From a virus (Duplodnaviria > Caudoviricetes): 30,763 nucleotides of DNA. Below the pieces are notes generated by a model. That model was not told the DNA's origin and did not search any database. It saw only the letters and a list, made by a program, of their open reading frames with translations. The translations under genes and the position numbers were made by a program. Below, piece by piece: positions 4,675 through 26,939 of the stretch. The stretch is from IMG/VR virus record IMGVR_UViG_3300032218_000499, positions 1 to 30,763 of that record; one strand, 5' to 3'. Each line of letters begins with the position of its first letter. The first letter of the stretch is position 1.

Positions 4675-4929
4675 ATGGGACTTCTAGCTAACCGTGCGCC
4701 ACCGAATCCGCCGCTGCCTCCTGCGGAGTACAACAAAGCGTACTTTGACCGCTTGGTCAACATCTTGAACTTGTTCTTTCAACAGATTAACGCCGTGCAA
4801 GCAATTAGTATTGCCCAGCTAAACATCAATATAGACACGTTGCCTACCGATGCCAATTTAGCTAACTTGCGCTCAGGCGATGTGTACAGAGACACCACAG
4901 CGGGTAACGTCTTAAAGGTAAAAGTATGA
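4675..4929 (+). CDS. Small hypothetical virion protein
   Basis: Tightly packed between structural genes with an ATGA overlap downstream; PNPPLPPAEY followed by an amphipathic helix. Confidence 0.6.
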   Translation: MGLLANRAPPNPPLPPAEYNKAYFDRLVNILNLFFQQINAVQAISIAQLNINIDTLPTDANLANLRSGDVYRDTTAGNVLKVKV

Positions 4930-7900: not shown

Positions 7901-10700
7901 CGGGTCAATCCTAGCGAGTGACGTAGCAAGAGTTGTAGAAAACCCAACTGAATTTTCTAAAACTATTGCAGACACGCTTGCTCCGGGCGGATCACCTACG
8001 CCTGTCCTCACATTCTTAAAGGGCGGCGCATACGAAAAAACAACGCCGGGCGCTGCATTTATAGGCGAAGGCAATGCTGCATTGAAGCCAGCAGAATCTG
8101 CACCGCTTGCGTCTTCTAAATTGCAACAATTTGATGTAGGCAATTTGGCAAAAAATGATCCTGTGTTTACCGTTGCAGAAACATATAAAGTTGAGCCGCG
8201 TGTAGCTGCAAACATGGTGGATAACTCGTCAAGGCTTGGTGTCACGGTTGGCGAAGCTACAGCTTTAGAGCTTATTGATTCGCAAGGAAACGTAACCGCT
8301 AGAGGCAATACTCTATTAAACCCTGCCCCAGAACTGGGTCAAGCTAAACCTAAAGTTGAGCCGCCACCGCCTGAGCCAGCACCTACTCCTGCGCCCAAAA
8401 TTGAACCAATTAAGAATCCAGAAAAACCCGCTAACGATCCACTCGGACCGAATGTGCCGTTACCTGAGAACGATCCCTTATTTGAGCCGCCCAAACCCGC
8501 TACTCCAGAAAAAGAGCCTGCCAAGCCCGCTGCGCCCGTAATTATTCCTCCACCTGCGCCGGTAGAACCTGCTCCTGTTGAGCCATCTAAGCAACCCGAA
8601 AAAACTCCGGGGGAAGCTCCTGCTAAAGAACCCGCTAAAGAACCTGCTAAAGAGCCAGAAAAAGCACCGTCTGAAAATCCTGAGCAAGCTCCAGAAAAAG
8701 CACCCGCACAACAGCCGCAAGTTGAGCCGCAGCCCGAACCTAAGCCACAGCCTGAGCCTAAGCCAGAACCCAAACCAGAACCACAGCCAGAGCCAAAGCC
8801 AGAAATTAAGCCAGAAGTTAAACCAGAAGTTAAACCAGAAGTTAAACCAGAAGTTAAACCAGAAATAAAACCTGAGATAAAGCCAGAAATAAAACCAGAA
8901 ATTAAACCTGAGATAAAGCCAGAAATAAAACCAGAAATTAAACCTGAGATAAAGCCAGAAATTAAGCCAGAAATTAAACCAGAAATAAAACCTGAGATAA
9001 AGCCTGAAATAAAACCTGAAATCAAGCCTGAAATAAAACCTGAAATAAAACCTGAAATCAAGCCTGAAATAAAACCTGAAATAAAACCTGAAATCAAGCC
9101 AGAGATAAAGCCAGAGATAAAGCCACCGCCGCCGGGTGGAACTGAACCCGATCCTGTTACGGGTGAGATTGTGGACATTACTCCGATTGTGGGCGATCCA
9201 GAAACATCAAAAAATAAAGCTAAAGCTAAGGCTCAGAAGAACCTTAAATTTAATAAAATGCTAACCCTAGCATTACAATCTATGCAGCCTGTGTCAGCAA
9301 AAACACCGCCGGGCGCACAAATTGATTACCTATACGACATTGGCGGCGAAAGCATTTTTGCACCAATGAAACAAGAAAGTAAGTATTTACCACGCGAAGG
9401 TTATTACGATCCGCAAATTGAGCGAGGCATGGCACAAGGCGGTATGGTTGCGTTTGATGAGGGTGGTGACGTAACCGAAGAAGCGCGTGCTTTGATGCAC
9501 AATCCTAAATTGTCGCAGCGCGGCAAAGACAGAATGGAGCGCGAGTACCCCGAAGACCCGTCAATGGCTGGCGAGATTGCAGCAGGGTTTCATCCTATTA
9601 TTGGACCCGCGCTATCGGTCAAAGATTTTAAAGAAGCCGCAGGTGAGGACGATTACCTTGGCATGGGGTTAGCTGCCCTTGGTATGATTCCAATTGCTGG
9701 CGGGGCTATTAGAGGTTATAACCGTTTAGTTAAACCCGCTTTGCAAAAACGCGCTTTTGCATCGCGTGATCGTGAAATGGAAAAAGAACTAATTGAAAAC
9801 TATGGCAAAATTCCCAAAGGACAGCCAATTCCTGAAGGATATATTGGTGGTCCGCCTCCACCCGCTCCAGCATTTCCTAGCGCAGCATCGCAAGCTGGGT
9901 ACTACGCGCAGCCAAAATTCCAAACAGACTATGGGCGTGAGTTTACGCATGATTTAATACACTCATCACCCAACCCAAACATTACGTCTTTTAATCCGGC
10001 ATTAGCTGATGCAAGTGAATACAGCACCCGACGAATTACACTCAACCCAAGCAGTCATGGTGGCGGGGATATGCCCAATCCATTATTGGCAGGCGTTCAT
10101 CCAGCGGATGATATCACTACATTTTTATCCAATAACCTAGCCTATAGCTCGCAATATATGCCTAGGGACTATGTTAGCCCTGTAGGATTGAAAGACGGAA
10201 AGTTTTTTAAAAAACATGAAGTCCCGCATATAACTGGAATGCCGCGATCAAAGGTAGTGTACGACCCCGGATCAACAATGTATCCAGTGAGCGCAAGGCT
10301 TGGTAAAGTATTTGACCCCACCGCTCCGGGTGCAGACAAGATTGCAGAAGAATTCTTAGGCACACTCAAAATGCCAAAAGGTATGGATGAAAAAGATTTT
10401 GGCACATACATAAATTTTGCTAGGCATTCGTTGCTTAGTGGCGACGCAAAAGCCGTAGAAAGCCCGCAATTTAGAAGTTATTTAAAAGACAACGGTTTTG
10501 ATAGCTTTGCTTTTTTAAAAGGCAGTGGTGAAAACCAAGTTAAAAATTATGGCATCTTTGATCCTAAAAACATTCGCGGCAAATATGCAGAGTTCAACCC
10601 TGCTGCCGCCCATGAGTCAGACATTATGAAAGCCAATGGTGGCTACGTTAATGACGCCAATTCTATTGATGATTTATACGATTTGTTAAGGAGTAAATGA
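4926..10700 (+). CDS. Giant multidomain internal virion / polyvalent protein (DUF4214-like repeats, Gly/Ala region, Pro-rich linker, pre-toxin-like helices, ART-like domain)
   Basis: 1924-aa uninterrupted ORF; three LGRxPD-type repeats at the N-terminus; (KPE[I/V])27; C-terminal [22 protein letters not shown] pattern resembling ART-PolyVal. Confidence 0.75.
8796..9119 (+). repeat. Coding tandem repeat, 27 x 12 bp (KPE[I/V])
   Basis: Unit AAR-CCW-GAR-RTH counted directly. Exact 36-bp higher-order copies: 8868-8903 = 8904-8939 and 9024-9059 = 9060-9095. Confidence 0.97.
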
Positions 10701-13623: not shown

Positions 13624-16600
13624 ATGGATGTGCGAATGCCAGATGGCACGGTGATTTCTGGGGTTCCAGATACTGCCACTAAAGAAGACGTAGCAGCGCG
13701 ATATAGCGCATATCAAGCATCCTTACAACCCGCGAAAGAAGCTACCGCATTAGGCGAAGCTGCAAAAAGCGTAGAACAGATGGGGTCTGCGTACCAGACT
13801 GCGCTTGGTACGCTTACAAGCGACCCTGTAGCCGCTGTGCGCGAGGGTATGGCGCGTAAAGAAGACCTAGAGCGCAAGTATGGGACGACTCGTGGGTTAA
13901 ATGAAGCCGTAGCTGCTTACGATACCGCAGGTGGTGGGGTGAGTGGTGCGTTGTCTGCAACGGGCGAAACATTGTCGCAAGTACCCCAAGCAGTAGCGGG
14001 TCAAGCTGCCAATTTGGGTGCAATGTACGCAGGGTCTAAAGCGGGGGCAATGATCGGTGCAACTGCGGGCACTGCGATTCCTGTTCCAATTATTGGCACA
14101 ATCGGCGGTGGGGCGCTTGGGGGTTTCGCCGGTGCAGTTCTGTCGCAGGTAGTTCCGTTCTATCAAGAAAACTTAGAAGCCCAATTAAAAGCGCAAGAGG
14201 CGCGGGGTGAGAAACCTGATTTAAATCGCGCCAGTGCAGCGGCGGTAGCGGTTTTACAAGGTAGTTCAGAAGTCGCGGCTAAGATACTTACCCTAGGTGG
14301 TGCGCTTGTTAGCAAAATCATAGGTAGCAAGCCCGCGCAACAAGCTGAGAAAGCATTGGTTGAAGCTGCGCAGAAGTCTCTCGCCGCCGCCGCAGGGCGT
14401 TCGTTACCCGGAGCTGTAGGCATGGGTTCGGTGCGTGCTATAGGGTCGGAACTCCCTGTAGAAATGGCACAGAACATTATGACCCGCGCACAAGCGGGGC
14501 AAAGCCTGACCAATGAAGACGCGCTCAATGATTATAAAAACACACTGTTTGAGACCGTTAAAGTGGCAGGTGCTATTGGCAGTGCTACGGGTCCTTTAAA
14601 TCGTTCGGCAGCACGCTCACAAATGCAAGAGCAAGGCTTAACCCCGGCGGGCACGCCTATCAATCCGGAACTATCCCCAGAAGAACAAGCTGCGCGGGAA
14701 GCCGAGCAACAAACCGTTGGGCACATGCGTGCACAGCGCGAAGAACAAGAAGCTGCAAAGGCTGCACAAGCACCTTTTATCGGGCAAGAAAAAACTGAAA
14801 CCCCTGAGGGGCAGTTTGGGCTGAACCTAGAAGGCGGCAAGCGCGTTGCACCTAGTACGACAGTGCAAGGTACGGAATTGCCAGAGCGCAAGCCCGGTTT
14901 TGACGCCTACGGTCGCCCAAAAACCACGGAAGAACCCGCGCCCGCAGCAGCCCCGCTTACAGGCGGCGAAGCCACACCAATGACACAGGCGTTGGACACC
15001 ACGCAACCCGTGCAACAACACCGCGATGAGCTTGCTGCGCTCACGCAACGATTGGCTGAGACCCCCGACACCCGAGAAAACAAGGCGCTCCGCTCGCAAC
15101 TTAATGGGCGCATTGGGACACTCACGAGGCTCATCAAGACAGCCGAAGCTGTGCCTGTCGGTACACAGGGCGCGTTGCCTATTGTGCCTGCTGCGGAACC
15201 CACAGCCACTGAACCCGCACCTGTCGAACCAACCCCCACACCTGCGCCCACCACAAGCGCCTTGGTTCGGGCAGCGGGCATCCCTGCAAGCGCACCCGTT
15301 GCGCAGCAGTTAAAGAAACTAGACCTCACACAGCAGGCTGACCGCACGGCAGCAGCAGAGTTTATTGCGCAAGCCCTTGCAAATAAAAACGTCAAGCCTG
15401 AGACAAAGGCGGCTATACAAGCGTTCTACGACCAGCACATTGCCCAACCTATACCAGACACACAGGGCGGCTTAGACTTGGGCGAGCCACAACCCCTAGT
15501 GCAGGTTCCACCTACGGTGGCAACACCTGCCGCACCTGTCGCTCCCCCTGTTGCACCCACCACGCCTACAGCCGCTGTCACCCCTGACACCGCACCGCCA
15601 CTTATCGACACAAGCGTGTGGAACGCATTAGGTATCGGACCCACTGCCAAGATTCGCAAAAATGTGGATGTAAACGGTAAAGACATCACAGACCCAACAG
15701 ACGGTGCGTTTGTGCGCCAAGCACTTGAAGCCTATCGTGACGCGTCTAAGAGCGCCCGCATTAAGGCAAACATCGACAAGTACCTTGCACGCTTCCCCGT
15801 ACCTGCGGCTACGATCACACCCCCACCTCCACCTCCACCACAGACACCTGTGGAAAAACGTGTTGCGTCTGGGCAAATTGAAGACTGGGCAAAAAAGGCT
15901 TTTAGCTACAACAACATCGGCACAATTATGTATGCCGATAATAACTTTGCGTTGGTATACCGGCAATCAAAAACTGGGTTTGATTATGAAGTGCTGTTAA
16001 AAAACAGATCACGTACCATTTCAGTCAATACCGCTTTGGCAATCATGCCGCCATCAGTAGCGGCGGGCATTACAGAAGCCCACGCCCTAATCGAAGCGCG
16101 TGAAAATGCAGCGCTTGCCAAGACACCTGATGGACCGTTTACCAATGCTGCAAGCAACGTTGTAGCTTCGGCTAGTGTTGACCCACGCTACGTGCAATAC
16201 ATAACAGCGTTAATGCAAAAGTTGGGCATGGGTAACATCAACTTGTTCTTGTTTCAAGACAAGGATTTGGTTGGAAACAAAGACCTATACAACTTGCATG
16301 GGCCATACAGCGTCATTGTAAAAGACCCCAACCAGCCCGATTCAAAAACATCTGCGGGATGGACTCATCCTTACGGTCCCGCGCAAGACGCACTTGTAAT
16401 CAACATAGCAGACCTACCGTCTAGCCTTGAAGATACGCTTGAGACGTTATCGCATGAGCTAGGGCACGGTATTGAGTTTTCGGCGTTTGTAAACGCACCA
16501 CAAGCCACACAAGATGCGATCATTGATGAGTATCGTCAGTGGAGATTCCGTGCAAACAACATGACCGTTGAGCAGTTAATCAACTCTTTGCGCAATCGTG

Positions 16601-19600
16601 TGGGCGCTAGTTTGTTTTTAGCTAAACTTTCACCTACCGTACTACAAGCTCCTATTGGCAGTACCACTTTAGATTTAAACTACTGGTTAGGTTTTCCCGA
16701 GTGGTTTGCCGACAACGTATCGCGTTGGGCATCAACCGATGCAAAAGCCATCGGTGTAGTAGAAAAATTCTTCCAAGACGTTGCTAAGCAATTGCGTGCG
16801 CTTGTGGCGGCGGTTACAGGTATGCAGTTTGCGCCTAACTCAGCCGTTGCGGACTTCCTCAACAAGATGGGTCCGAGCAGTCCTGTGGCGTGGCAAGGGT
16901 CTATTGCACAGCCGCGCGTACAACCAAAAACAACTACCGCTTCGGAAGCCACTGATTTAACCGATGCCGCTGAAATTGACGCACTAGATATTGCGCCCTC
17001 TATCGAAGAAGTAGGCGAGTCAACCATCGGGCGAATCTCGCAGAGTATCAATACACCGCCGGGGCAAATTCTGCCTTCTACATGGAACAACATTAACCAA
17101 GCGCCATCACAAGCGCAGCGTACCGCCATGACGCAGTTTGCTGCCGTGCAAGCGCAGGGCGATGTCAGTTGGGCAGATTGGTTCCGTCAGAAAACCGTGG
17201 ATGTGTTCGCGCCTGTAGCTACCAAGCTCGGTGCGCTCTTTGACCAAGGCGTGCGTAACTCGTTCGGTGATGTAAACCCTGTGCAGTTCATCCGGCAAGC
17301 TTTTGACCACGCACGTGTGGCGCTTGATGTGTTCAAGCAAGGCGGTTTGCGCATGAACAAAGATGGTTTCTGGGAAAGCTATCAACTCAAAGACGCCAAC
17401 GGTAAAGAAATGTCAGCGCAGCAAGTGGTTAAAGACATTGCAGCACTTGCCAAAAAGAACAACGAAGCCTACAACGTCACCAAAGGAAAAGTAGCTACGG
17501 TGCTAGAAGGTATGCGCCTGTCTGATTTGCGCAAAGAGAACGCCACGCTAGAAACACTCGCTCAGGGCCACGAAGCCAACGGTGACTTTGATCTGGCAGA
17601 CAAAACTCGCGAGAAGAAATTCCTCTTACACATGCGCTTTGCTGAGATTGATACGCTTGAGCAAGTGTTTCAAGCATCGCCTGAGTTACAAGAAATTCAA
17701 CGCATTATGAATGCGTCACGCGAGTCGGTAGTGGATGCTATGGTTACTTCGGGTCGCATCAGTGCGGAGCGCGGCGACTTCTGGAAAGCGGTAACTAACT
17801 ACGTGCCGTTTGACCGTGTGAACAACGTATACGAAGACTTATCGCTTACACAACGCCCAACCCGCAAAGGCATTGCGTCATTAGGTGAACTGCCTAAGTT
17901 GCGTGGGTCACTCAAACGCCCTGTTGCGAACACCGTGGACAACTACATGAACACGATGGCGTGGATGGTTGACCAATCCATGCGCAACTCTGCCGCCGTA
18001 CGGGTGCTTAACTTGATGGCAACTCCGGGTGTAAATATGGCAAACAAATTGCCATCCATGAGCCAAGCCACCAACACTCACATGGTTGTGCCTAAACTCT
18101 ACGAGAACGGCGAACCTGTGTACTTTGAACTGCACAGCCTGTACGACTTTGCGGCCTTTGTACAAGCACCTGAGATCACATCAGGCGCGTTAAAACTGCT
18201 TGGTGCATCCTCACGCTTGTTACGCACGACCGTCACTGCGACACCTATGTTTGCAATCAAGCAGGTAATTGATGACGCGCAACGTGTGATGTTTTACTCA
18301 GGGGTTAAGAACCCAACTGCCGCACTTGCTACCGTATTCAAGCACTTTCCTAGCGCGTGGTTTGGTGCATGGATTGGCAAACAATCTGGGCTTGAGAAAA
18401 AACTAGTAAGCCTTGGCATTATCGGTGACTACGACTTCAACCCCACCAACCCAATTGAGACCCTTGAGTACCAAACAGGCGCAGAAAAACGCGGTTTTGT
18501 TCGGGCGTTAATTAACAAGCTTGAGCAAGTCACCAAAGCCTCTGACATGGCTGCGCGTATGGCGGTCTACGAGCGGACACTAAAAGAAACGGGCGACCCA
18601 GCCGTTGCCCAAGTCCGCGCACGTGAACTGATTAACTTTAACCGCCGTGGGTCATCTAAGGCTATGAACGTGCTTGCGCACACGGTTCCGTTCTTTAATG
18701 CCTACGCACAGGGTCTAGATTTAATGTACCGTGGCGTGACAGGTAAGGATGCGTCGTCAGGGCTGAACAAACGCGCAGCACGTAACTTCTTTATCAGTCG
18801 CATGGTGATAATGACAGGCATGGGGTTTCTGTACGCCGCAGCTATGTCAGATGATGACCAGTACGAAGACTTGACCGATGAAGTGCGGGATCGCAATTGG
18901 ATTTTACCTAAGTCAATAAATGAAGGGTTGGGGGTAAATTTCCCAATCAAAATTTCTGTGCCATCAGAGCTTGGGTTCATCTTCAAGTCAATCCCTGAGC
19001 GCATCGTAAGTTACATGAAAGCCGCATCAAAGGGTGAGGATCAAGGCGTTGGGCATGCGGTAACGAGTACGCTCAGTGACGCGCTTAAAACATACGGCAC
19101 TGTACCGATTCCACCTGTGCTGAAATCTGCTATGGAAAATACCGCCAACTACTCGTTCTTTACGCATCGGGAGCTTGTACCTAAAGTCATGCAAGAGCGC
19201 CCTGCGTATCTACAATACACATCCAACACATCAGAACTAGGCAAAGCTATTGGCAAAACCGCTGACGTATCACCCATCAAAGTCGATAACTGGATACGCG
19301 GCACATTTGGGTTGATGGGTGCGTCTGGGTTGCTCGTGACTGACGCTATGATGAACCCTGCACGACCTGATCGCTCTCTTGCCCAGATACCCTTCATGAG
19401 TATTGCGTTGGTAAACCCTGCGGGGTCGCGTGTCAAAGATGAGTTCTATGAGTTCCGTCAAAAAATAACGGAAGCCGTGGCAGCAAAGAACATGCTCGAA
19501 AAAGAAAACCCAGTTAAGTATTATGAGTTCGTGCAAAAGAACTACCACCTGCTTGCCGCAGCACCCTATGTGAATCAAAAACTCAAGATGCTATCTGAGC

Positions 19601-19758
19601 TACGCGCAACCAAAGAGATGTTCACCAACATGCCCGCTGCATCCATGACTTCGGCTGAAAAACGCAAAAACATTGATGAGATCAACCGGATTGAAAAGAT
19701 AATGTTAAGTGACATGCGGACGATGCGCTCTGCGATACAAAAAACGGGTCCCAAATAA
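13624..19758 (+). CDS. Large polyvalent ejection protein with zincin-like metallopeptidase and LPD38-like C-terminal domain
   Basis: 2044 aa; N-terminal VRMPDGTVISGVPD; HELGH at 16453-16467 plus downstream EWFAD; C-terminal INFNRRG, VPFFNA, RDRNWILP, NTSELGK and SPIKVDNWIRG motifs. Confidence 0.8.
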   Translation: MDVRMPDGTVISGVPDTATKEDVAARYSAYQASLQPAKEATALGEAAKSVEQMGSAYQTALGTLTSDPVAAVREGMARKEDLERKYGTTRGLNEAVAAYDTAGGGVSGALSATGETLSQVPQAVAGQAANLGAMYAGSKAGAMIGATAGTAIPVPIIGTIGGGALGGFAGAVLSQVVPFYQENLEAQLKAQEARGEKPDLNRASAAAVAVLQGSSEVAAKILTLGGALVSKIIGSKPAQQAEKALVEAAQKSLAAAAGRSLPGAVGMGSVRAIGSELPVEMAQNIMTRAQAGQSLTNEDALNDYKNTLFETVKVAGAIGSATGPLNRSAARSQMQEQGLTPAGTPINPELSPEEQAAREAEQQTVGHMRAQREEQEAAKAAQAPFIGQEKTETPEGQFGLNLEGGKRVAPSTTVQGTELPERKPGFDAYGRPKTTEEPAPAAAPLTGGEATPMTQALDTTQPVQQHRDELAALTQRLAETPDTRENKALRSQLNGRIGTLTRLIKTAEAVPVGTQGALPIVPAAEPTATEPAPVEPTPTPAPTTSALVRAAGIPASAPVAQQLKKLDLTQQADRTAAAEFIAQALANKNVKPETKAAIQAFYDQHIAQPIPDTQGGLDLGEPQPLVQVPPTVATPAAPVAPPVAPTTPTAAVTPDTAPPLIDTSVWNALGIGPTAKIRKNVDVNGKDITDPTDGAFVRQALEAYRDASKSARIKANIDKYLARFPVPAATITPPPPPPPQTPVEKRVASGQIEDWAKKAFSYNNIGTIMYADNNFALVYRQSKTGFDYEVLLKNRSRTISVNTALAIMPPSVAAGITEAHALIEARENAALAKTPDGPFTNAASNVVASASVDPRYVQYITALMQKLGMGNINLFLFQDKDLVGNKDLYNLHGPYSVIVKDPNQPDSKTSAGWTHPYGPAQDALVINIADLPSSLEDTLETLSHELGHGIEFSAFVNAPQATQDAIIDEYRQWRFRANNMTVEQLINSLRNRVGASLFLAKLSPTVLQAPIGSTTLDLNYWLGFPEWFADNVSRWASTDAKAIGVVEKFFQDVAKQLRALVAAVTGMQFAPNSAVADFLNKMGPSSPVAWQGSIAQPRVQPKTTTASEATDLTDAAEIDALDIAPSIEEVGESTIGRISQSINTPPGQILPSTWNNINQAPSQAQRTAMTQFAAVQAQGDVSWADWFRQKTVDVFAPVATKLGALFDQGVRNSFGDVNPVQFIRQAFDHARVALDVFKQGGLRMNKDGFWESYQLKDANGKEMSAQQVVKDIAALAKKNNEAYNVTKGKVATVLEGMRLSDLRKENATLETLAQGHEANGDFDLADKTREKKFLLHMRFAEIDTLEQVFQASPELQEIQRIMNASRESVVDAMVTSGRISAERGDFWKAVTNYVPFDRVNNVYEDLSLTQRPTRKGIASLGELPKLRGSLKRPVANTVDNYMNTMAWMVDQSMRNSAAVRVLNLMATPGVNMANKLPSMSQATNTHMVVPKLYENGEPVYFELHSLYDFAAFVQAPEITSGALKLLGASSRLLRTTVTATPMFAIKQVIDDAQRVMFYSGVKNPTAALATVFKHFPSAWFGAWIGKQSGLEKKLVSLGIIGDYDFNPTNPIETLEYQTGAEKRGFVRALINKLEQVTKASDMAARMAVYERTLKETGDPAVAQVRARELINFNRRGSSKAMNVLAHTVPFFNAYAQGLDLMYRGVTGKDASSGLNKRAARNFFISRMVIMTGMGFLYAAAMSDDDQYEDLTDEVRDRNWILPKSINEGLGVNFPIKISVPSELGFIFKSIPERIVSYMKAASKGEDQGVGHAVTSTLSDALKTYGTVPIPPVLKSAMENTANYSFFTHRELVPKVMQERPAYLQYTSNTSELGKAIGKTADVSPIKVDNWIRGTFGLMGASGLLVTDAMMNPARPDRSLAQIPFMSIALVNPAGSRVKDEFYEFRQKITEAVAAKNMLEKENPVKYYEFVQKNYHLLAAAPYVNQKLKMLSELRATKEMFTNMPAASMTSAEKRKNIDEINRIEKIMLSDMRTMRSAIQKTGPK

Positions 19759-19782
19759 AAAACCCCCGGCACGAGACCGGGG
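19757..19782 (-). terminator. Rho-independent terminator of the leftward arm
   Basis: The minus strand reads CCCCGG-TCTCGTG-CCGGGG-G-TTTTTT at the convergence of the two arms. Confidence 0.85.
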
Positions 19783-19820
19783 TAAACACAACTAAGGAGA
19801 TCAACATGGACATGTTGAAC
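19757..19820 (-). ncRNA. Candidate ~64-nt anti-Shine-Dalgarno small RNA
   Basis: Bounded by the promoter at 19827-19855 and the terminator; 5' hairpin UCAACAU/AUGUUGA, exposed UCUCCUU, no ORF on this strand. Confidence 0.6.
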
Positions 19821-19826
19821 GGACTC

Positions 19827-19855
19827 ATTATATCAGCACATCCGCCACACCCCAA
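19827..19855 (-). promoter_or_regulatory. Sigma70-type promoter with extended -10
   Basis: Minus strand TTGGGG-N17-TATAAT with TGn directly upstream of the -10 (TGATATAAT). Confidence 0.7.
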
Positions 19856-20072
19856 GCCCCCATTGCCCGTTACGTTCGCCTACTACGATATGCAGCTTGA
19901 TACGGCGCTTGCGGGCACTGTGCACTAGCATCTCGGTTATGCGGTCGGTAGCCACACATGGTATGAACACATTTGCCCCAACCGAAAAAGCCGCCCAATC
20001 AAACGTATAGGTGACTCCTTCTGCGTCAAGGATGCAAACCGTAGGAAGTTTAGGCTTTGGGTTTCGTCTCAT
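19833..20072 (-). CDS. Hypothetical phage protein
   Basis: Overlaps the primase 3' end; FDWAAFSVGANVFIPC...GLGVWR resembles a small protein often found after phage primase genes (from recall, not searched). Confidence 0.6.
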   Translation of the reverse strand: MRRNPKPKLPTVCILDAEGVTYTFDWAAFSVGANVFIPCVATDRITEMLVHSARKRRIKLHIVVGERNGQWGLGVWRMC

Positions 20073-22884
20073 CTAGTACAGCTTCCATATCAAACACACG
20101 GCTGTATGGGTCATGAATAGCAAGCACGTTAGCCGGTGGGGTACTAAGCAACGTGCCCTTAGCCATGCGCTTCTTGGCAAGCTTGATGTCAAGACCGCTC
20201 GCCAACAGATTGTTAATCAGTTCGTTATAGCCCACCTGACGCTTGGCGCACCATGCCTTAAACGGGGGTGATGAAAGGTAGATTGTCTGGGTGTTAGGCT
20301 CGTAGCGGATCAGCAACTCGCCTCTGGGTTCACGTGTAGCAATTGGTTTGTAGGTTGTATCGCTATCATCAATGATAAGCACGTTGTTGATGTTCTGGTT
20401 GATGTACGCTGCCAAACTGTCTGACCCATCTACCGAACCCTTGGTTGACTCTACGGCATTGGCTAAGAACGTGGACGCCCAACGGCTCACGCGCTCCACG
20501 TTGATGTTATGCAAACCTAGGGTGGCTGCAATCGTGCCGCCTGCAAGAGCAATAGAAGCCATATTCGACCATATACGCTCACGCTGATTAAGCCGTGCAT
20601 TGCGATCAGTCTGCGTTTGAATGTCGGTAAGAATCCGCTTGGACTCATCAAGGTTATTGACCACATAACCCATAAACAACTCACCAGCAATACCGTAGTT
20701 AGTGTGCAATTTAGCAAACAACGCATCGGTATGCGCTTTCGTGAACTGCATGATGCGCTGCACGGGTACTTCCATCACGCGCATTAACTCACCCTCAGGA
20801 AAGTCTTTCTCAGCCGACAGCTTATCAATCAGACTGCTGTTCGATGATGCCAGTGTGGGGGCTTGCCACGTTGTGTTGTTCACGCGCTCAGCGTTCGTAC
20901 TGGCTTGCAAGCGGTTCTTGCCACGTGCGGCGGTAGCTGCGTACACCATGTTCGACATCTCAATGGGCGACAGGTTAGTAATCTCATCAATGGTAATGGG
21001 CAAATGTTGCAGTACGCCCATGCGGTGTATGCGGGCGTTATACGTGTCGTCTTTTTGCAAAAGCAAATCAACCGGATGACCCCAAATACTGTTAGCCACC
21101 ATGAGTGCCGTAGACTTACCAACGCCTGATTGATTGCTCATTAGGTTATAAATGCCGCCACGGTACTGCGTGAAGTGCATGAGCGGTGCACCAAAGCTCA
21201 GAAATGCAGCAAAGGCAAACGGCTCTAGACCGGGGGTGTCGTAGAAGTTCACGACCTTTAACCACTCTTCAATGGTTCCCTTCTTCTGCAACATACTGTT
21301 GACCCGCAGGGTAGCCGCAGAGGGCGGGCTGTAGCGGCTTACCTCAGTCGCAGTCGTTGCCATCGCGGTGGGTATAACTTCCCGATCACCAATTAAGAAT
21401 GTGCCTTCCGGCGTCCAACCCATTTGGGTTCTCATATTTTCTGTACGTTCGCGCATTTGTAACCTCTTAGTAGTTTTTTGAATGTATGTCATTAACGAAT
21501 TAAAACTTTCACCACTAGCCATAATGCCGTATTCCGCAATGGCATCACGAAACTTATCTTTTGCAACCACCACAGGCAACGGCAAACTAAACTCTCGTAC
21601 ACCGTCATGGGGCAGCTTTAAACGCAATAAGATTGACTCACCTAACACGGGGTCTTGCATACGCTTGACCACATAAAAATCATGCTCATATATGCAGGCT
21701 TCAGCGCGGCTTTCACCCTCACCTGTTTCAACGTACACGCCGCCATGCTTGCCACGAAAAAAAGGAAACGGAAACGGCTCAATGACTTCTTGTACAGTTT
21801 CTTTAGTGCGGGGGTTAACAACCTTAACCACATTATCGTCATCTGTCGCACGCTGTATCTCGCGCCCAAGCACCACAGGCGTTGTGATGTTGCCGCGCTG
21901 TGCGCAGCCCTTACACCCATCGGGGTTCAGCCCCTCAAACGTCTTGCAGTATTGTGGTCCTTCGGTCTTGTTAGCCTTGTCTTCAGTCGCCGTGTGCGAG
22001 TAGGCGGGGTGCTGATTAGACATTGCATGGATGGCTTCATCGCGGTCAACGCAGACCTGCGCAATAGATAGCCCCGCACGCCATAACGGTTCGCTGATCT
22101 GCGCTTGGTTGTTGCAGATGTGTTGTAGCTGTGCGCAAGTTTCTGTGCGCACCAGAATATTTTTGAATCGTGTGACGTTGTTTTTGATGAACGCTTTGGT
22201 CACATCATCCATTGCGTACTTAATGTTCTTAGGTACTGCAAACGGCAATACGTTATCCGGTACGTCCGCCTCACCCGCCCCTAGTTTCTCAGCAAATGCC
22301 AGTAGCTTAATCGGGGTCTTGCGGGATTTCAACAACTCAACAGGCTTGGGGTTCTTTGGATCGCGGTAATTAAACGTGCCCGGAATACGCAGTATGCGTG
22401 CGGAGTCAGATGTACACGATGGGTCTGCACGCAGCCCATGCTCCACGCACAACGCCTTCAGACGCTTGGCAATCGGCAACCATACCTCAGGGGCAATCTC
22501 TTTTTCTAACGGCCAATACAGATGCAAGCCATTACCTGAACTCACCACCACAGGGTGCGGTAGTCCCGTAGTCTTGATAAACGCCATCACCGCACTGGCG
22601 GCTTCGGCTTGCGTGGGATACCCGCTGCCATCATCCTTGTTGCTATCAACGTCTAACCAAAACGATTTTATCTTTGCTACGTTTGATTGCTTACGCTCTG
22701 CCCCATCATTAAAAGATGCGCAAGCGAAGTACTGATTAACAGGTGCATCAATCGCGCTACTCGCAAGTTCAAAGTCTGCGATAGCCGGTAAAAATAGATG
22801 CTCAACCTTCTTGCCCAATATAGCTGCGAGACAATATGTTCCTGATTCAGGAAGCACAAAGCGCAGAAATTCAATAGGTGTCAT
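20050..22884 (-). CDS. DNA primase-helicase (AEP/RepB-like primase + DUF927 + P-loop ATPase)
   Basis: WLDVD, SSGNGLHLYW and DSARILRIPGT primase motifs; Cys cluster (C..C..C); QMGW; Walker A QSGVGKST; Walker B ITIDE. Confidence 0.88.
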   Translation of the reverse strand: MTPIEFLRFVLPESGTYCLAAILGKKVEHLFLPAIADFELASSAIDAPVNQYFACASFNDGAERKQSNVAKIKSFWLDVDSNKDDGSGYPTQAEAASAVMAFIKTTGLPHPVVVSSGNGLHLYWPLEKEIAPEVWLPIAKRLKALCVEHGLRADPSCTSDSARILRIPGTFNYRDPKNPKPVELLKSRKTPIKLLAFAEKLGAGEADVPDNVLPFAVPKNIKYAMDDVTKAFIKNNVTRFKNILVRTETCAQLQHICNNQAQISEPLWRAGLSIAQVCVDRDEAIHAMSNQHPAYSHTATEDKANKTEGPQYCKTFEGLNPDGCKGCAQRGNITTPVVLGREIQRATDDDNVVKVVNPRTKETVQEVIEPFPFPFFRGKHGGVYVETGEGESRAEACIYEHDFYVVKRMQDPVLGESILLRLKLPHDGVREFSLPLPVVVAKDKFRDAIAEYGIMASGESFNSLMTYIQKTTKRLQMRERTENMRTQMGWTPEGTFLIGDREVIPTAMATTATEVSRYSPPSAATLRVNSMLQKKGTIEEWLKVVNFYDTPGLEPFAFAAFLSFGAPLMHFTQYRGGIYNLMSNQSGVGKSTALMVANSIWGHPVDLLLQKDDTYNARIHRMGVLQHLPITIDEITNLSPIEMSNMVYAATAARGKNRLQASTNAERVNNTTWQAPTLASSNSSLIDKLSAEKDFPEGELMRVMEVPVQRIMQFTKAHTDALFAKLHTNYGIAGELFMGYVVNNLDESKRILTDIQTQTDRNARLNQRERIWSNMASIALAGGTIAATLGLHNINVERVSRWASTFLANAVESTKGSVDGSDSLAAYINQNINNVLIIDDSDTTYKPIATREPRGELLIRYEPNTQTIYLSSPPFKAWCAKRQVGYNELINNLLASGLDIKLAKKRMAKGTLLSTPPANVLAIHDPYSRVFDMEAVLDETKPKA

Positions 22885-22923: not shown

Positions 22924-23142
22924 CTATTTGCCTAGCAATTTTTCCAATCGCTTTAGCTTATCGGGGGCGGGTGCATACTGCCCTGTAAACCAATCGTATA
23001 CGCACGTGCGTGACACACCTAACGCGTCTGCAACTTCTGTGACGCTTATATCTTTCTGCACCGCTAACATGCCCAATGCACCGCCAACGGTTTTCTTTGC
23101 AGCCTTAATACGTTCTGCTAATGTAATTGAATATCCACTCAT
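22924..23142 (-). CDS. XRE/Cro-family HTH transcriptional regulator
   Basis: SVTEVADALGVSRTCVYDWFTG HTH. Start reassigned to ATG 23142, which follows GGAG at 23149-23152. Confidence 0.85.
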   Translation of the reverse strand: MSGYSITLAERIKAAKKTVGGALGMLAVQKDISVTEVADALGVSRTCVYDWFTGQYAPAPDKLKRLEKLLGK

Positions 23143-23166
23143 GCCTATCTCCAAAGTTGTAAAGGT

Positions 23167-23318: not shown

Positions 23319-24260
23319 TTACTCGTCGTCGTCAGCCCACTGATCTAGCACTGACTTAACATCGGCGGGTTTACCTTTACCACCACGCACCTTGGGTTCG
23401 GCATCGGCTTCTTCTGCGGGAGCCGCAGGTGCAGGCGTAGCCTTAGCTGCTTTTGCAGGGGCTTTGGCTTGCTTTGCAGCGGCAGCTTTAGCTACAGCTT
23501 CGGAGGCTGCATCGGTTTCAAACGGCTCATCGTCTTCTGCCTTGTCTGCCTTAGGCGTAAACGACATCGTGATTGCAGCCATCGCTTCAGAGCTATCAGC
23601 CCGCTCCGTTACGGTCGTGTACTCATCTTGCTCAAGCGGGCGGATAGGCTTGAACGTGAGCTTCGGTGTTGCCGAATTTGTGTCGAACCGCATCTCAGTC
23701 ACAACAGCCGTGACAGGTAAGTTATGCCCTGCGAGGAATCGGACATACGCTTCAAGTGGCAGCTTGCCTTTCTCGCCTTTACCAAAAATAGACTGCGCAG
23801 GTAACGCTATCTGCAACACATCACCTGAAATGTCATTGTCAAGCACCACCGCAAGCCTACGTGTATAGCGACACGCACGCCCTTCACCCTGACCAGAGCC
23901 TTTGATGTTCTGTGGGCATGTCACGCACTTGGGGCTTTGTGGGTTACGCACGATGGCATCAGGTGTCTCGTTGTTCGATGACCAGCAATCAGGCGCGGAG
24001 TTCTCGCCCTCTTTGTACGTACCTGCATAGAACGTGCGATGCACGCTTGCGGCACTCTTAACAATCACAACATTCATAGCGCGGTCATCGCTCTGCATAA
24101 CTTCTTCGCCGTTTACGATCTTGCGAAACACACCACCACGAATTGAAATGCGTGATACTGCGTCACCACCACCCATCAAGCTGCGAGTGGTTTCGTCCAT
24201 AGTGATACCCTTGAGGTATGCGGGTAGTTTTGCGGTGTTGAATAGAGTGAGTTCACTCAT
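23319..24260 (-). CDS. Putative ssDNA-binding / annealing protein
   Basis: RISIRGGVFR, APDCWS, C..CPQN..GSG...RACR motifs; Ala/Lys/Pro linker and acidic tail QWADDDE; located in the replication module. Confidence 0.6.
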   Translation of the reverse strand: MSELTLFNTAKLPAYLKGITMDETTRSLMGGGDAVSRISIRGGVFRKIVNGEEVMQSDDRAMNVVIVKSAASVHRTFYAGTYKEGENSAPDCWSSNNETPDAIVRNPQSPKCVTCPQNIKGSGQGEGRACRYTRRLAVVLDNDISGDVLQIALPAQSIFGKGEKGKLPLEAYVRFLAGHNLPVTAVVTEMRFDTNSATPKLTFKPIRPLEQDEYTTVTERADSSEAMAAITMSFTPKADKAEDDEPFETDAASEAVAKAAAAKQAKAPAKAAKATPAPAAPAEEADAEPKVRGGKGKPADVKSVLDQWADDDE

Positions 24261-24477
24261 GTGTATCTCCGATTGGTTGGGGGTTAGATTCTACAAGCTT
24301 GTCTTCAGAAATGCCAAAGTACTTGCGGATGTCACTTAAAAAGAAACGGTAATGCTTACCTACACGCATTGAAGGTAGCGGGTTGTCTGCCCGCTTAGCT
24401 AAATTTACAACTGTAGTTTTACTGATGTTCAATGCACGTGCGACCTGCGTGGTTGTCATGGGGCGCTCTAGCATCAC
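24253..24477 (-). CDS. Excisionase-like (HTH_17/MerR-like) DNA-binding protein
   Basis: MTTTQVARALNISKTTVVNL...LPSMRVGKHYRF winged-HTH pattern. Confidence 0.8.
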   Translation of the reverse strand: MMLERPMTTTQVARALNISKTTVVNLAKRADNPLPSMRVGKHYRFFLSDIRKYFGISEDKLVESNPQPIGDTHE

Positions 24478-24869
24478 TTGCGACTCCGTGTGACTGTTAT
24501 GGCGTACTGACTTGTGACATTCAAGCCGGGCGGCATAAGCTCTGGGTTGCTCTCAATAAACTCTTTCATCGCACGCTGTGCAACACGGCGCTCTAGCAGG
24601 TCAGGTGCGCTATGCTCTAACACAAACTTGTGCATAGCTTCCCAATCCGTTGCATCGTAGCGGGTCTTGACAGAACGTGATACTGTACCGAACTGAGTCT
24701 TTAATCCATCCGTGCCGGTAGTCTTGCACAGTTCTAGCAACTCAGATTCAATAGCTGCCATCTGCTCTTTCACACTAGCGTCTTCGTCTTCGTACTGCGC
24801 TTTTATTGCCGAACGGTGGTCACGCATTTTTATATATGCGTTAACCATTTTGTCTACGGTTATGTCCAT
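24474..24869 (-). CDS. Hypothetical phage replication-module protein
   Basis: AGGAG SD; N-terminal coiled coil, KTQFGTV, DWEAMHKFV, LLERRV and PPGLNV motifs. Confidence 0.7.
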   Translation of the reverse strand: MDITVDKMVNAYIKMRDHRSAIKAQYEDEDASVKEQMAAIESELLELCKTTGTDGLKTQFGTVSRSVKTRYDATDWEAMHKFVLEHSAPDLLERRVAQRAMKEFIESNPELMPPGLNVTSQYAITVTRSRK

Positions 24870-24890
24870 GTATTACTCCTGTGAATATCT

Positions 24891-24919
24891 ATTATAATGC
24901 TTTATATTTACATTGTAAA
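24891..24919 (-). promoter_or_regulatory. Sigma70-type promoter with palindrome over the -35
   Basis: Minus strand TTTACA-N17-TATAAT in an AT-rich gap; inverted repeat TTTACA-T-TGTAAA at 24907-24919. Confidence 0.8.
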
Positions 24920-24922
24920 GTA

Positions 24923-26476
24923 TTAAATGTTGATGACCTCCTCGTACAACGCAAGCAAGCTTACGTTAGTATCTTCGCAATTATCAAGTGCCTTGTACCG
25001 CTTTTCTTCTACGGGACTACCCTGTAACTTCACAACCAAACATTTATTCTTTTGCCCTGCGCGATGGATACGGGCGTTGGCTTGCGCGTAGGTTTCATAG
25101 GACATGATCGGTCCCCACCACACAATCGTGTTAGCGGCATGTAGGGTAATCCCGTGGGAAGCAGCTTGCGGTTGGATGACTAACACTTTAGGGTTAGCTT
25201 GTTCTTGAAACGTCTTGATAACTGCTGCGCGTTTGGTCGGGGTAACGCCGCCGTGTATGGTGTCAACGGTGTAACCGTCAGCGGCCAGTTTCTCTAGCAG
25301 AAGCTCTATGGTGTGCGTGTATGGCACGAACACTAACACCTTATGGGGCGTGTCATCAATTACTTCCCGCAGCACATCGTAGCGGGGGCGTATGTCGAGT
25401 TCTATGGTCTGGTGGTCATCGGTGTACACCGCGCCACACGAAATCTGTAGCAGCTTGTTAAGCCCTGCTGCTGCATTGACCGCTGAGATAATCTCACCCG
25501 CTGCAATAACCGCTAAGTTTTTGCGCAATTCGTCATAGAGCTTTTTCTGTTGGCGAGTCAACGGCACTTCGCGAGTCGTGTAAATAATGTCCGGCAAGTC
25601 TAGGCACTGCTCTTTGGTGAACCGGATTGCGGGTTGCAGCAAATTGTTGACCGTAGTGATCGCAGAAGGCTTGGGTATCCATTTAAAGTTTGTGATCTTA
25701 GACATTACAGAGTCACGGAACATGCCAAACGACCTAGGCGCGGTGCTTGGGTGCATCATCTTCACTAAGCCAAACGCATCAAGCGGTGACTGCGAGGCAG
25801 GTGTGCCCGTCATCATCCATACCCAAGTGTCGGGTCGAATCAGTTTATTGATTTGCTTCCACCGTTCAGTCGTAGCGGTCTTCACAGCGTTGGCTTCATC
25901 AATGATGATAAGGTCGAAATCGCATGCCATGAGTTCTTTTTGGATAACCGCAACGCCATCAAAGTTAATGATGACAAACTCTGTGTTGGCTTGCAGAATC
26001 TTTTTGCGCTTGTCTTTGTTGCCATGCGCAATAGACACGGTACGGTGCATGACGCACAAGAACAAGTCACTCACCCACGTAGCCTGCATCACCGACACGG
26101 GGCAGATCACCAGTACACGCTTGACGCGCCCTATGTTCATCAGGTAATCCGCTGCCCAGATAGCGGAGGCGGTCTTGGCTGTGCCTTGCTCGTTAAAGCA
26201 AAAGGCTCTGCGATTGAGAGTGAGAAATGCTGCGGTTTGCTTCTGATGCGCAAAGGGTGGGCGCGTGCCTGTCCACTTGTACTTGGCAATGATAGGTGAC
26301 GGTACGTTGCGGATGTTCAGGTTCTTTAGCACCTGTGCGGTGTCTATATCCCAATGCACTAGCACTTCGTACAACCCATCAACCTCATCAACGATGGCAC
26401 TCTTTGGTATGACGTTCAGCACCCTAGCGGGGTTACGCAGGCGCAGTTTCAACGCCCGATTTTCAATGACTTCCAT
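24923..26476 (-). CDS. SNF2-like superfamily 2 helicase
   Basis: FAHQ, EQGTAKT, IIIDEA, MTGTP, HGITL and QANARIHRAGQ motifs. Start reassigned to ATG 26476, which follows GGAG. Confidence 0.9.
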   Translation of the reverse strand: MEVIENRALKLRLRNPARVLNVIPKSAIVDEVDGLYEVLVHWDIDTAQVLKNLNIRNVPSPIIAKYKWTGTRPPFAHQKQTAAFLTLNRRAFCFNEQGTAKTASAIWAADYLMNIGRVKRVLVICPVSVMQATWVSDLFLCVMHRTVSIAHGNKDKRKKILQANTEFVIINFDGVAVIQKELMACDFDLIIIDEANAVKTATTERWKQINKLIRPDTWVWMMTGTPASQSPLDAFGLVKMMHPSTAPRSFGMFRDSVMSKITNFKWIPKPSAITTVNNLLQPAIRFTKEQCLDLPDIIYTTREVPLTRQQKKLYDELRKNLAVIAAGEIISAVNAAAGLNKLLQISCGAVYTDDHQTIELDIRPRYDVLREVIDDTPHKVLVFVPYTHTIELLLEKLAADGYTVDTIHGGVTPTKRAAVIKTFQEQANPKVLVIQPQAASHGITLHAANTIVWWGPIMSYETYAQANARIHRAGQKNKCLVVKLQGSPVEEKRYKALDNCEDTNVSLLALYEEVINI

Positions 26477-26483
26477 ACGGCTC

Positions 26484-26612
26484 CGATACGAAATCAGCCG
26501 TACACGCAATGTGTACAGCTTTAAATTAGCAACCGTCTTTCCGGCGTGTCACGATTTCAGTATATTTCCCGTATCGTTCGGGTTGTTGGAGTAACACTAC
26601 GTGCTAGGCACG
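26484..26612 (-). promoter_or_regulatory. Structured leader upstream of the helicase
   Basis: 10-bp hairpin at 26496-26520, GAAATC/GATTTC enclosing stem, GCCG-GAAAGA-CGGT hairpin, and CGATACG/CGTATCG pairing next to the SD. Confidence 0.5.
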
Positions 26613-26636
26613 AGGCCATATACAAGAACCCAATAC

Positions 26637-26939
26637 TTACTTCTTTTTACGTTCGCGCTTGCTAACTTCTGATACTAGGTTGCCTTTCGCATCACGCTTA
26701 AACGAGCGGTTGCTGTTTGAATCTTCAACTTTGATACCGTCTTTGATTGAGCCGCCTTTATCAACAGCCTTCACATGCGCGGCATCCTTGCCATCACCCT
26801 TGTGCAGCTTACCTGCCTTGACTAGCGTGGTGCGTGCTTTGTTGCGCTCATCACGTGCTTTGATCTGTTCGGGCTTGCCGTGGTACAGCGCATACTCACG
26901 TGCATAGTTACGGTCTTCTTTGTTCTTGTATGGCATCAC
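26637..26939 (-). CDS. Small basic HNH-endonuclease-like protein
   Basis: GDGKDAAHVKAVDKGGS...NSNRS matches a degenerate HNH pattern. Confidence 0.65.
   Translation of the reverse strand: MMPYKNKEDRNYAREYALYHGKPEQIKARDERNKARTTLVKAGKLHKGDGKDAAHVKAVDKGGSIKDGIKVEDSNSNRSFKRDAKGNLVSEVSKRERKKK

Follow-up and report, generated by a model that had tools for sequence, protein, structure and literature searches.

A conserved unit at the arm junction of a phage family, predicted to encode a candidate RNA anti-Shine-Dalgarno regulator of early mRNAs

The window analyzed here is the 30,763-nucleotide (nt) stretch that makes up virus record IMGVR_UViG_3300032218_000499 (Caudoviricetes), a 30.8-kb record with a completeness estimate of 49%, the complete relatives of this phage measuring 60–68 kb. 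Virion and lysis genes occupy the plus strand up to position 19758, and the minus strand, down to 19833, encodes polymerase A, an exonuclease, an SNF2 helicase, a protein of 131 amino acids (aa), two helix-turn-helix (HTH) proteins, a 313-aa protein, a 944-aa primase and a 79-aa protein. The 74-nt gap that separates the two arms is occupied by a compact minus-strand unit, predicted to specify a 64-nt small RNA (sRNA) with an exposed anti-Shine-Dalgarno (anti-SD) core. The unit and its immediate surroundings comprise the following features:

19833..20072, minus strand: conserved 79-aa gene, the final gene of the replication arm, which holds the promoter (locus comparison)
19850..19855, minus strand: −35 hexamer TTGGGG, within the final codons of the 79-aa gene (sequence)
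19827..19835, minus strand: extended −10 element TGn TATAAT, whose TGA ends the 79-aa gene (sequence)
19757..19820, minus strand: predicted 64-nt small RNA, 5' end predicted to ±2 nt (motifs and fold)
19801..19818, minus strand: 5' hairpin, whose loop GUCC and 3' strand hold a clade-specific anti-AUG-GAC arm (fold)
19794..19800, minus strand: single-stranded anti-SD core UCUCCUU (fold)
19757..19782, minus strand: intrinsic terminator, stem 19782–19764 plus U tract (terminator scan)
19806..19928, plus strand: open reading frame (ORF) of 40 codons behind an opposite-strand SD (ORF list, AAGGAG-6-ATG)

An earlier note on this DNA, made from its letters alone, had described a minus-strand promoter of the form TTG-N17-(TGn)TATAAT and an intrinsic terminator bounding a non-coding unit of ~64 nt. 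Both boundaries are present: TTGGGG (19855–19850) is separated by 17 nt from TATAAT (19832–19827), and the stem at 19782–19764 is picked up by the terminator scan. A consensus promoter scan of the window does not list this promoter, whose −35 hexamer matches at only three of six positions. The unit is predicted to fold into two hairpins (−19.9 kcal/mol, z −3.3), a value equaled by one of 200 shuffles, with the linker and the anti-SD core between them unpaired, as the note had proposed. Its description of a masked anti-AUG arm holds in part, as the arm is partly hidden in the 5' hairpin, whereas GUCC forms the loop and is unpaired. The polarity of the terminator suits the minus strand only; on the plus strand the hairpin at 19757–19782 lacks a U tract, so that late transcription probably continues into the RNA gene and yields transcripts fully antisense to the RNA.

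Loci reaching past the primase gave 88 distinct junction sequences, the window included, of which 74 carry the unit (70 extracted by rule and four by hand, with the −10 element re-placed by hand in two); two of the locus scans gave the best 80 of ~590 relatives, and the sample leans to closer relatives. The other 14 junctions comprise nine with overlapping genes, one with a terminator only, one uncounted variant, one long gap and two unresolved cases. Cut at 75% primase identity, the 74 units fall into 31 clades, and their length ranges from 43 to 89 nt, with a median of 69. A −10 element with at least four of six matches lies at the stop codon in 70 of the 74 units, compared with 245 of 1158 control stops, and its extended form (TG) occurs in 51 of 74, compared with 17 of 1158 other gene stops, and is invariant among the nine sequences of the clade nearest the window. 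The first −35 position is T in 28 of 31 clade representatives and TTG at 16–18 nt spacing is found in 42 of 74 units, both counts being partly confounded by coding sequence. Such conservation of the promoter suggests primary transcription of the unit, although it may be processed.

The anti-SD core is similarly conserved, with CUCC present in 71 of 74 units (23.1 expected from shuffles) and in 28 of 31 clades (8.9 expected), at a median unpaired probability of 0.96, while CTCC precedes five of 30 other intergenic terminators. The hairpins around it are very different from clade to clade and the number of anti-SD copies varies from one to three; in the L026–L056 clade, two single-stranded anti-SD motifs lie in the loop and the linker, compared with one in the window. 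Within the 5' stem, three of seven pairs are changed on both sides among the nine near-clade sequences, changes that appear compensatory, the events being few and the sequences related. The note's anti-AUG pairing does not extend to a general mechanism, as only L013, L285 and the nearest clade have GUCCAU, and the sole invariant over the family is the generic UCUCC/CUCCU core.

It could be argued that the locus holds no regulatory RNA and is just the replication-arm terminator, or an SD that serves a short peptide gene on the plus strand, where AAGGAG-6-ATG is followed by 40 open codons. We find this scarcely credible. The ORF at 19806, which the note had itself raised as an alternative, is not conserved: it measures 29, 40 or 67 codons, in differing frames, among nine near-clade loci, and beyond the near clade it has 1–67 codons or no start, being absent or 1–14 codons long in most clades, and a peptide gene was rejected. 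Moreover, CUCC and the extended −10 element lie far above their controls, and co-variation with distant gene starts, described below, would be left unexplained.

The uncounted variant junction (L221:6455-6540) has a −10 element, TTCTCC and a hairpin stem that pairs the CU tract with an SD-like AGGAGAG. In one complete relative (G035, locus L093) the scan found only a terminator at the junction and no unit, but it likewise failed to pick up units established in L258, L259 and L275. No unit was found at the junctions or stretches scanned, covering part of the genomes, in the distant cultured relatives Pseudomonas phage Rollin, Rhizobium phage RHph_TM3_14A and Xanthomonas phage Xp15. A scan of viral contigs for the pattern −10/GTCCAT/TCCT returned noise, and among the matches listed only L163, already known, had the genes of the family.

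Pairing of the RNA with gene starts was computed for 25 starts of the window as energies net of the unfolding cost, and involves the following features:

24862..24880, minus strand: SD, spacer and first codons of the 131-aa gene, the best-supported target (−17.5 kcal/mol net)
24474–24869, minus strand: the 131-aa Gam/Gp157-like gene (weak Pfam Mu_Gam and DUF7307 matches below cut-off; fold matches to Siphovirus Gp157)
24891..24919, minus strand: sigma-70 promoter TTTACA-17-TATAAT immediately 5' of the Gam-like gene (promoter scan, 11/12 matches)
24258..24270, minus strand: start region of the 313-aa gene, which has no assigned function (−9.7 kcal/mol, ordinary in the window)
23140..23160, minus strand: start region of the XRE HTH gene, the second-best window pairing (−15.5 kcal/mol)
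26474..26500, minus strand: start region of the SNF2 helicase gene, weak in the window (−5.5 kcal/mol)

The 131-aa gene is the best of the 25 starts, matching the RNA in register at 15 of 19 positions, 10 of them contiguous, and only 1.3% of 2023 foreign starts pair equally well; the same gene is the best target in eight of nine near-clade loci. The other start matches put forward in the note are also present, namely 11/13 at the 313-aa gene, 10/13 plus two G-U pairs at the XRE gene, 8 nt at the polymerase gene and 7 nt at the exonuclease gene. Set against foreign starts, and judged from the window alone, the 131-aa gene lies beyond chance, whereas the 313-aa, polymerase and exonuclease genes do not, their pairing being equaled by 45%, 31% and 54%, respectively, of 610 foreign GGAG-bearing starts. 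Pairing at the XRE start amounts to −7.9 to −11.9 kcal/mol in eight near relatives. The third-best window pairing (−13.6 kcal/mol) belongs to the start of the late LPD38 gene, which encodes one of two very large proteins of the virion arm (1924 aa with DUF4214, 4926–10700, and 2044 aa with LPD38, 13624–19758, both on the plus strand). Among the starts at 827, 13624, 24869, 27613 and 29492, four read ATGGAC and one ATGGAT; two of these are late-arm genes.

The product of 24474–24869 is called a 'minor head protein' by PHROG 13900 (source: Xanthomonas phage Xp15), and a model of it has no Protein Data Bank match at E 0.001. Its position, the Pfam leads and the fold point to a Gam/Gp157-like early protein, contrary to that label. 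With a near-consensus promoter and a leader of ~15 nt, the gene is likely to be strongly expressed and therefore worth capping. The label 'SSB-like' for the 313-aa protein finds no backing from protein families, as the protein has no Pfam match and one atlas cluster with 10% Pam3_Gp34. No Pfam or PHROG match was obtained for the 79-aa product, whose atlas lead is DUF7303 at a share of 10%. The nearest cultured phages are distant, with primase identities of at most 30%, and six genome-contig matches spread over unrelated labels of metagenome-assembled genomes, so that they name no host.

The relationship between RNA and leaders was then compared across clades, by setting the pairing of each RNA with the start region of its own phage against its pairing with the start regions of other clades, family by family. 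Of the ten gene families compared, three strong ones survive that number. By net binding energy, the Gam-like, 313-aa and helicase genes co-vary with the RNA at z −7.8 (30 clades), −6.4 (29 clades) and −5.4 (21 clades), and by longest perfect match at z 8.8, 4.8 and 3.8, respectively. With the GGAG core excluded and flanks only considered, the values are z 3.3, 2.7 and 2.2, the helicase flank signal dropping to p 0.07 at a coarser clade cut. Thus, of the targets named in the note, the 131-aa and 313-aa genes co-vary with the RNA family-wide, the polymerase gene gives a weak signal in energy (z −2.9) but not in match length, and the XRE gene (z +0.9 over 25 clades) and the exonuclease gene give none. 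Together with the primase, 100-aa, 79-aa and excisionase-like genes, the latter two were set aside as family-wide targets. A GU-rich arm that might pair with CA-rich enhancers was likewise discarded, being found in only four of 31 clades, with CAAC no commoner in early leaders (17/264) than in late ones (9/127).

A second comparison contrasts early and late genes, called in 22 larger relatives plus the window, with three late-arm ORFs left out for their overlap with the RNA gene. Perfect matches of at least 9 nt to the phage's own RNA occur at 42 of 264 GGAG-bearing early-arm starts and at four of 127 late-arm starts (Fisher p 1e-4, the genes not being independent), and at starts that lack GGAG in 0 of 379 and one of 462, respectively. 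The two genes that the note had named beforehand, Gam-like and 313-aa, outpair the late GGAG genes of the same genome in 17 of 20 genomes (p ~0.001). A second set, found post hoc, does so in 9 of 11; it consists of an early cluster encoding DUF3150-like, AAA ATPase and DUF2201 proteins (L302:3834-7062 and homologues), absent from the window fragment, and has some of the longest RNA matches, 13 nt in L056 and 18 nt in L065. Individual matches to the own RNA include 18 perfect nucleotides in L065 and 17 of 18 in L284; in L218, 12 nt match at a non-canonical SD.

These data bear on whether the RNA could instead be a broad anti-SD RNA directed chiefly against host mRNAs, damping host translation, so that its match to early leaders would be a by-product of a shared host SD style. 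The invariance of only a generic UCUCC/CUCCU core, the two or three anti-SD copies of some clades, the relocated units described below that lack clear targets of their own, and the toxicity of RF02278 members in E. coli, as described in a passage of PMC4603805, would all fit. A host style should mark late genes too, whereas no pairing excess (−0.04 ± 0.11) is seen at conserved late GGAG genes, among them the major capsid gene. In each of the 11 junction-type genomes the early leaders resemble one another more than they resemble those of other genomes, which does not apply to four genomes that lack the junction unit, while early-late and late-late comparisons show no such excess; the early-late similarity that a host style would raise is thus not raised. 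We regard host damping as the chief role as unlikely.

The likeness among early leaders could also arise if these shared a site for a phage protein, such as a translational repressor or a RegB-like nuclease, or were duplicated modules, the junction then being an inverted copy that acts as a sense RNA decoy in late read-through or as DNA. In L279 the early leaders do share bases outside the RNA-matched part, late read-through is likely in the absence of a late-strand U tract, and T4 RegB recognizes GGAG plus 3' flanks in early leaders (PMC3014915, in part). The polarity of promoter and terminator, however, favors the antisense strand in both cases, and the folds keep CUCC unpaired. The relocated unit, moreover, lies on the early strand, between two early genes and away from late transcripts. 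We therefore consider a protein site or decoy very improbable.

This relocated unit has the same anatomy, with a −10 element near the upstream stop codon, a hairpin, UCUCC and a terminator, and is found directly 5' of the SNF2 helicase gene in 11 loci (L074, L075, L088, L089, L095, L217, L268, L073, L077, L079 and L080). Seven of the nine loci with overlapping genes at the junction have it, as do four further loci, and two loci end too early. It is likened to the junction unit by this shared anatomy, and the RNA gene may be able to move within the genome. In the Gam-like leader of L074, L079 and L080, GGTTCTCC stands right before the ATG, a pyrimidine tract at the expected SD site, and such leaders are possibly self-folding or differently regulated. 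In the window, the site that holds the unit in the other clade corresponds to a spacer of 160 nt, flanked by the 100-aa and helicase genes (26476–26637, minus strand), with a hairpin at 26520–26496; the sequence of this spacer is strongly different in L007 and L056.

A further possibility is that the RNA serves immunity or dormancy in the manner of c4 of P1/P7: produced constantly by a resident genome, it would block the early genes of superinfecting kin or keep a carrier state, with RNA-leader co-evolution defining immunity groups. The host-type promoter, the fast clade-specific co-variation, the XRE and excisionase-like HTH genes of the phage and the same logic in c4 (a passage of PMC12197685) speak for it. 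Against this, tyrosine integrase (PF00589), resolvase (PF00239) and ParA (PF13614) were found in 0 of 11 near-complete relatives and no antirepressor-like target was identified, which leaves this role quite improbable. The absence of these three proteins indicates a lytic role, the phage family being probably lytic, and the lysogeny switch suggested in the note is not upheld. Host damping and kin immunity can coexist with the reading that we favor, namely that the unit encodes an anti-SD RNA that acts in trans to lower the translation of early mRNAs of its own phage.

To this reading we assign a probability of about 0.65. It retains the core of the note's proposal, on the strength of the stand-alone gene motifs, the conserved promoter, the CUCC core and the co-variation with the Gam-like and 313-aa genes, and drops the XRE and exonuclease genes as targets. 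Several results weigh against it. All early compared with all late GGAG genes, by flanks only, differ in the expected sense in 7 of 13 genomes (p 0.15, not significant); in only 7 of 30 clades does the own Gam-like target outrank those of all other clades; and several clades lack a good own target (L285, L286, L297 and L258). In four genomes with the relocated unit there is no clear pairing excess to own early genes, and in relocated-unit genomes GGAG is missing from most Gam-like and 313-aa leaders. The gene starts come from a script, and clades were permuted rather than compared on a tree. The one RNA run found (7% word share, contigs only) is uninformative for a 64-nt RNA, its pieces covering several genes and none lying on 19512–22015. 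Finally, the direction of regulation is assumed.

With respect to known systems, the unit resembles the class of trans-acting anti-SD sRNAs in having, as judged by motif conservation, a promoter and an intrinsic terminator around a non-coding stretch of 50–100 nt, and a predicted single-stranded seed that is complementary to, and co-varies with, the ribosome-binding site (RBS) of its targets. Rfam gives 0 matches at gathering score in the window and 11 sub-threshold matches to the unit at E up to 10. The best, to SorX (RF02784), reaches 32.1 bits, below the gathering score of 46.6, over the full model of hairpin, anti-SD linker and terminator. SorX of Rhodobacter sphaeroides, a repressor of potA, is processed out of the 3' end of an OmpR-type gene, as parts of PMC9438474 relate, whereas the viral unit follows a 79-aa phage gene without family assignment and has its own promoter motifs. 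The match to RF02278 scores 15.2 bits against a gathering score of 50, the RNAs of that family being chromosomal. These are reportedly endowed with an RBS-complementary motif, according to the original paper on toxic small RNAs. A passage of PMC4603805 portrays these betaproteobacterial RNAs as 57–92 nt long, intergenic and equipped with terminators.

AbcR1 and AbcR2 (alpha-r15) and NfeR1 of Alphaproteobacteria carry single-stranded anti-SD motifs in the 5' hairpin loop and between the hairpins, and repress many mRNAs at the RBS in trans, with flanks conferring specificity (PMC8844928, in part). This two-motif layout is matched exactly by the L026–L056 clade, and the window unit has one motif. 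AbcR1/2 are encoded on bacterial chromosomes and act on transporter mRNAs, whereas the phage RNA tracks phage early leaders, and none of the 11 sub-threshold Rfam matches of the unit is to the alpha-r15 model. Among phage RNAs, c4 of P1/P7 and sar of P22 are 68–77 nt long and block translation near the RBS of a phage mRNA, the specificity of c4 underlying heteroimmunity (passages of PMC12197685). These act in temperate phages on one antirepressor target, whereas here several early replication-arm genes are concerned and no lysogeny genes were seen; the c4 antisense RNA model (RF01695) gives no Rfam match for the unit. OppZ and CarZ of Vibrio cholerae arise from operon 3' ends and pair with their own transcript in negative feedback (PMC7398697, in part), a 3'-end feedback logic to which the viral unit may be likened, although they are released by RNase E and the unit has its own conserved promoter. 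The functional analogue would be T4 RegB, which inactivates early mRNAs by way of the GGAG in their SD, leaves all late and most middle mRNAs alone, and takes the bases 3' of GGAG as a determinant (a passage of PMC3014915); RegB is a protein nuclease, whereas the unit is predicted to act as a base-pairing RNA. The RNA may work like AbcR1/2, SorX and c4, yet it falls within no Rfam family. The literature searched holds no description of this phage RNA, and six short words are absent from supplements 3–6 of PMC10690425, which presents 10,000 candidate viral RNAs from viral metagenomes and may include it among its unnamed candidates.

The promoter and terminator motifs are conserved, the anti-SD is exposed in the predicted fold, and the RNA is complementary to, and co-varies with, a subset of early-arm leaders; we infer its transcription, pairing, repression and timing, and propose the following scheme. 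Host sigma-70 polymerase would start the RNA at the promoter inside the end of the last replication-arm gene, and the RNA would end at the replication-arm terminator, as the conserved motifs suggest. The stable RNA would present CUCCU in single-stranded form and pair with early and middle mRNAs of its own phage at the SD and the bases on either side, above all with those of the Gam-like, 313-aa and helicase genes, with the DUF3150, AAA ATPase and DUF2201 mRNAs as probable further targets. A covered SD would stop loading of the 30S subunit, as is established for anti-SD sRNAs, and repression is proposed because such RNAs act in this way (PMC8844928, in part). The bases flanking the SD would serve as an address that tells early from late mRNAs, and in the clade of the window AUG-GAC may belong to this address too, with the GUCC loop giving access to it. 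Given that the ribosome sites of early genes and the RNA sequence change together, the RNA probably switches those genes off. Its accumulation would then cap or shut off early proteins, a delayed negative feedback that may aid the move from early to late expression.

To our knowledge, early protein shut-off in virulent phages is understood for few systems, and there it proceeds through proteins. We put forward tentatively, at odds a little short of even, that a large lytic phage family may make its early-to-late switch by an RNA counterpart of T4 RegB, in which one RNA and a co-evolving address code of SD flanks would govern a multi-gene early regulon; both sides of the code would be rewritten from one clade to the next, the RNA gene would be mobile within the genome, and antisense late read-through may switch the RNA off. 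Self-targeting phage RNAs are listed, in passages of the review PMC12197685, mainly from temperate phages and with one target each; new here are a probably lytic phage family, a putative multi-gene early regulon, and an RNA and leaders co-evolving over ~30 clades. These ~30 natural RNA-leader pairs make the idea testable without culturing the phage, as targets can be read from co-variation, and, if the idea is true, the RNA family would constitute a natural set of partly orthogonal translation repressors.

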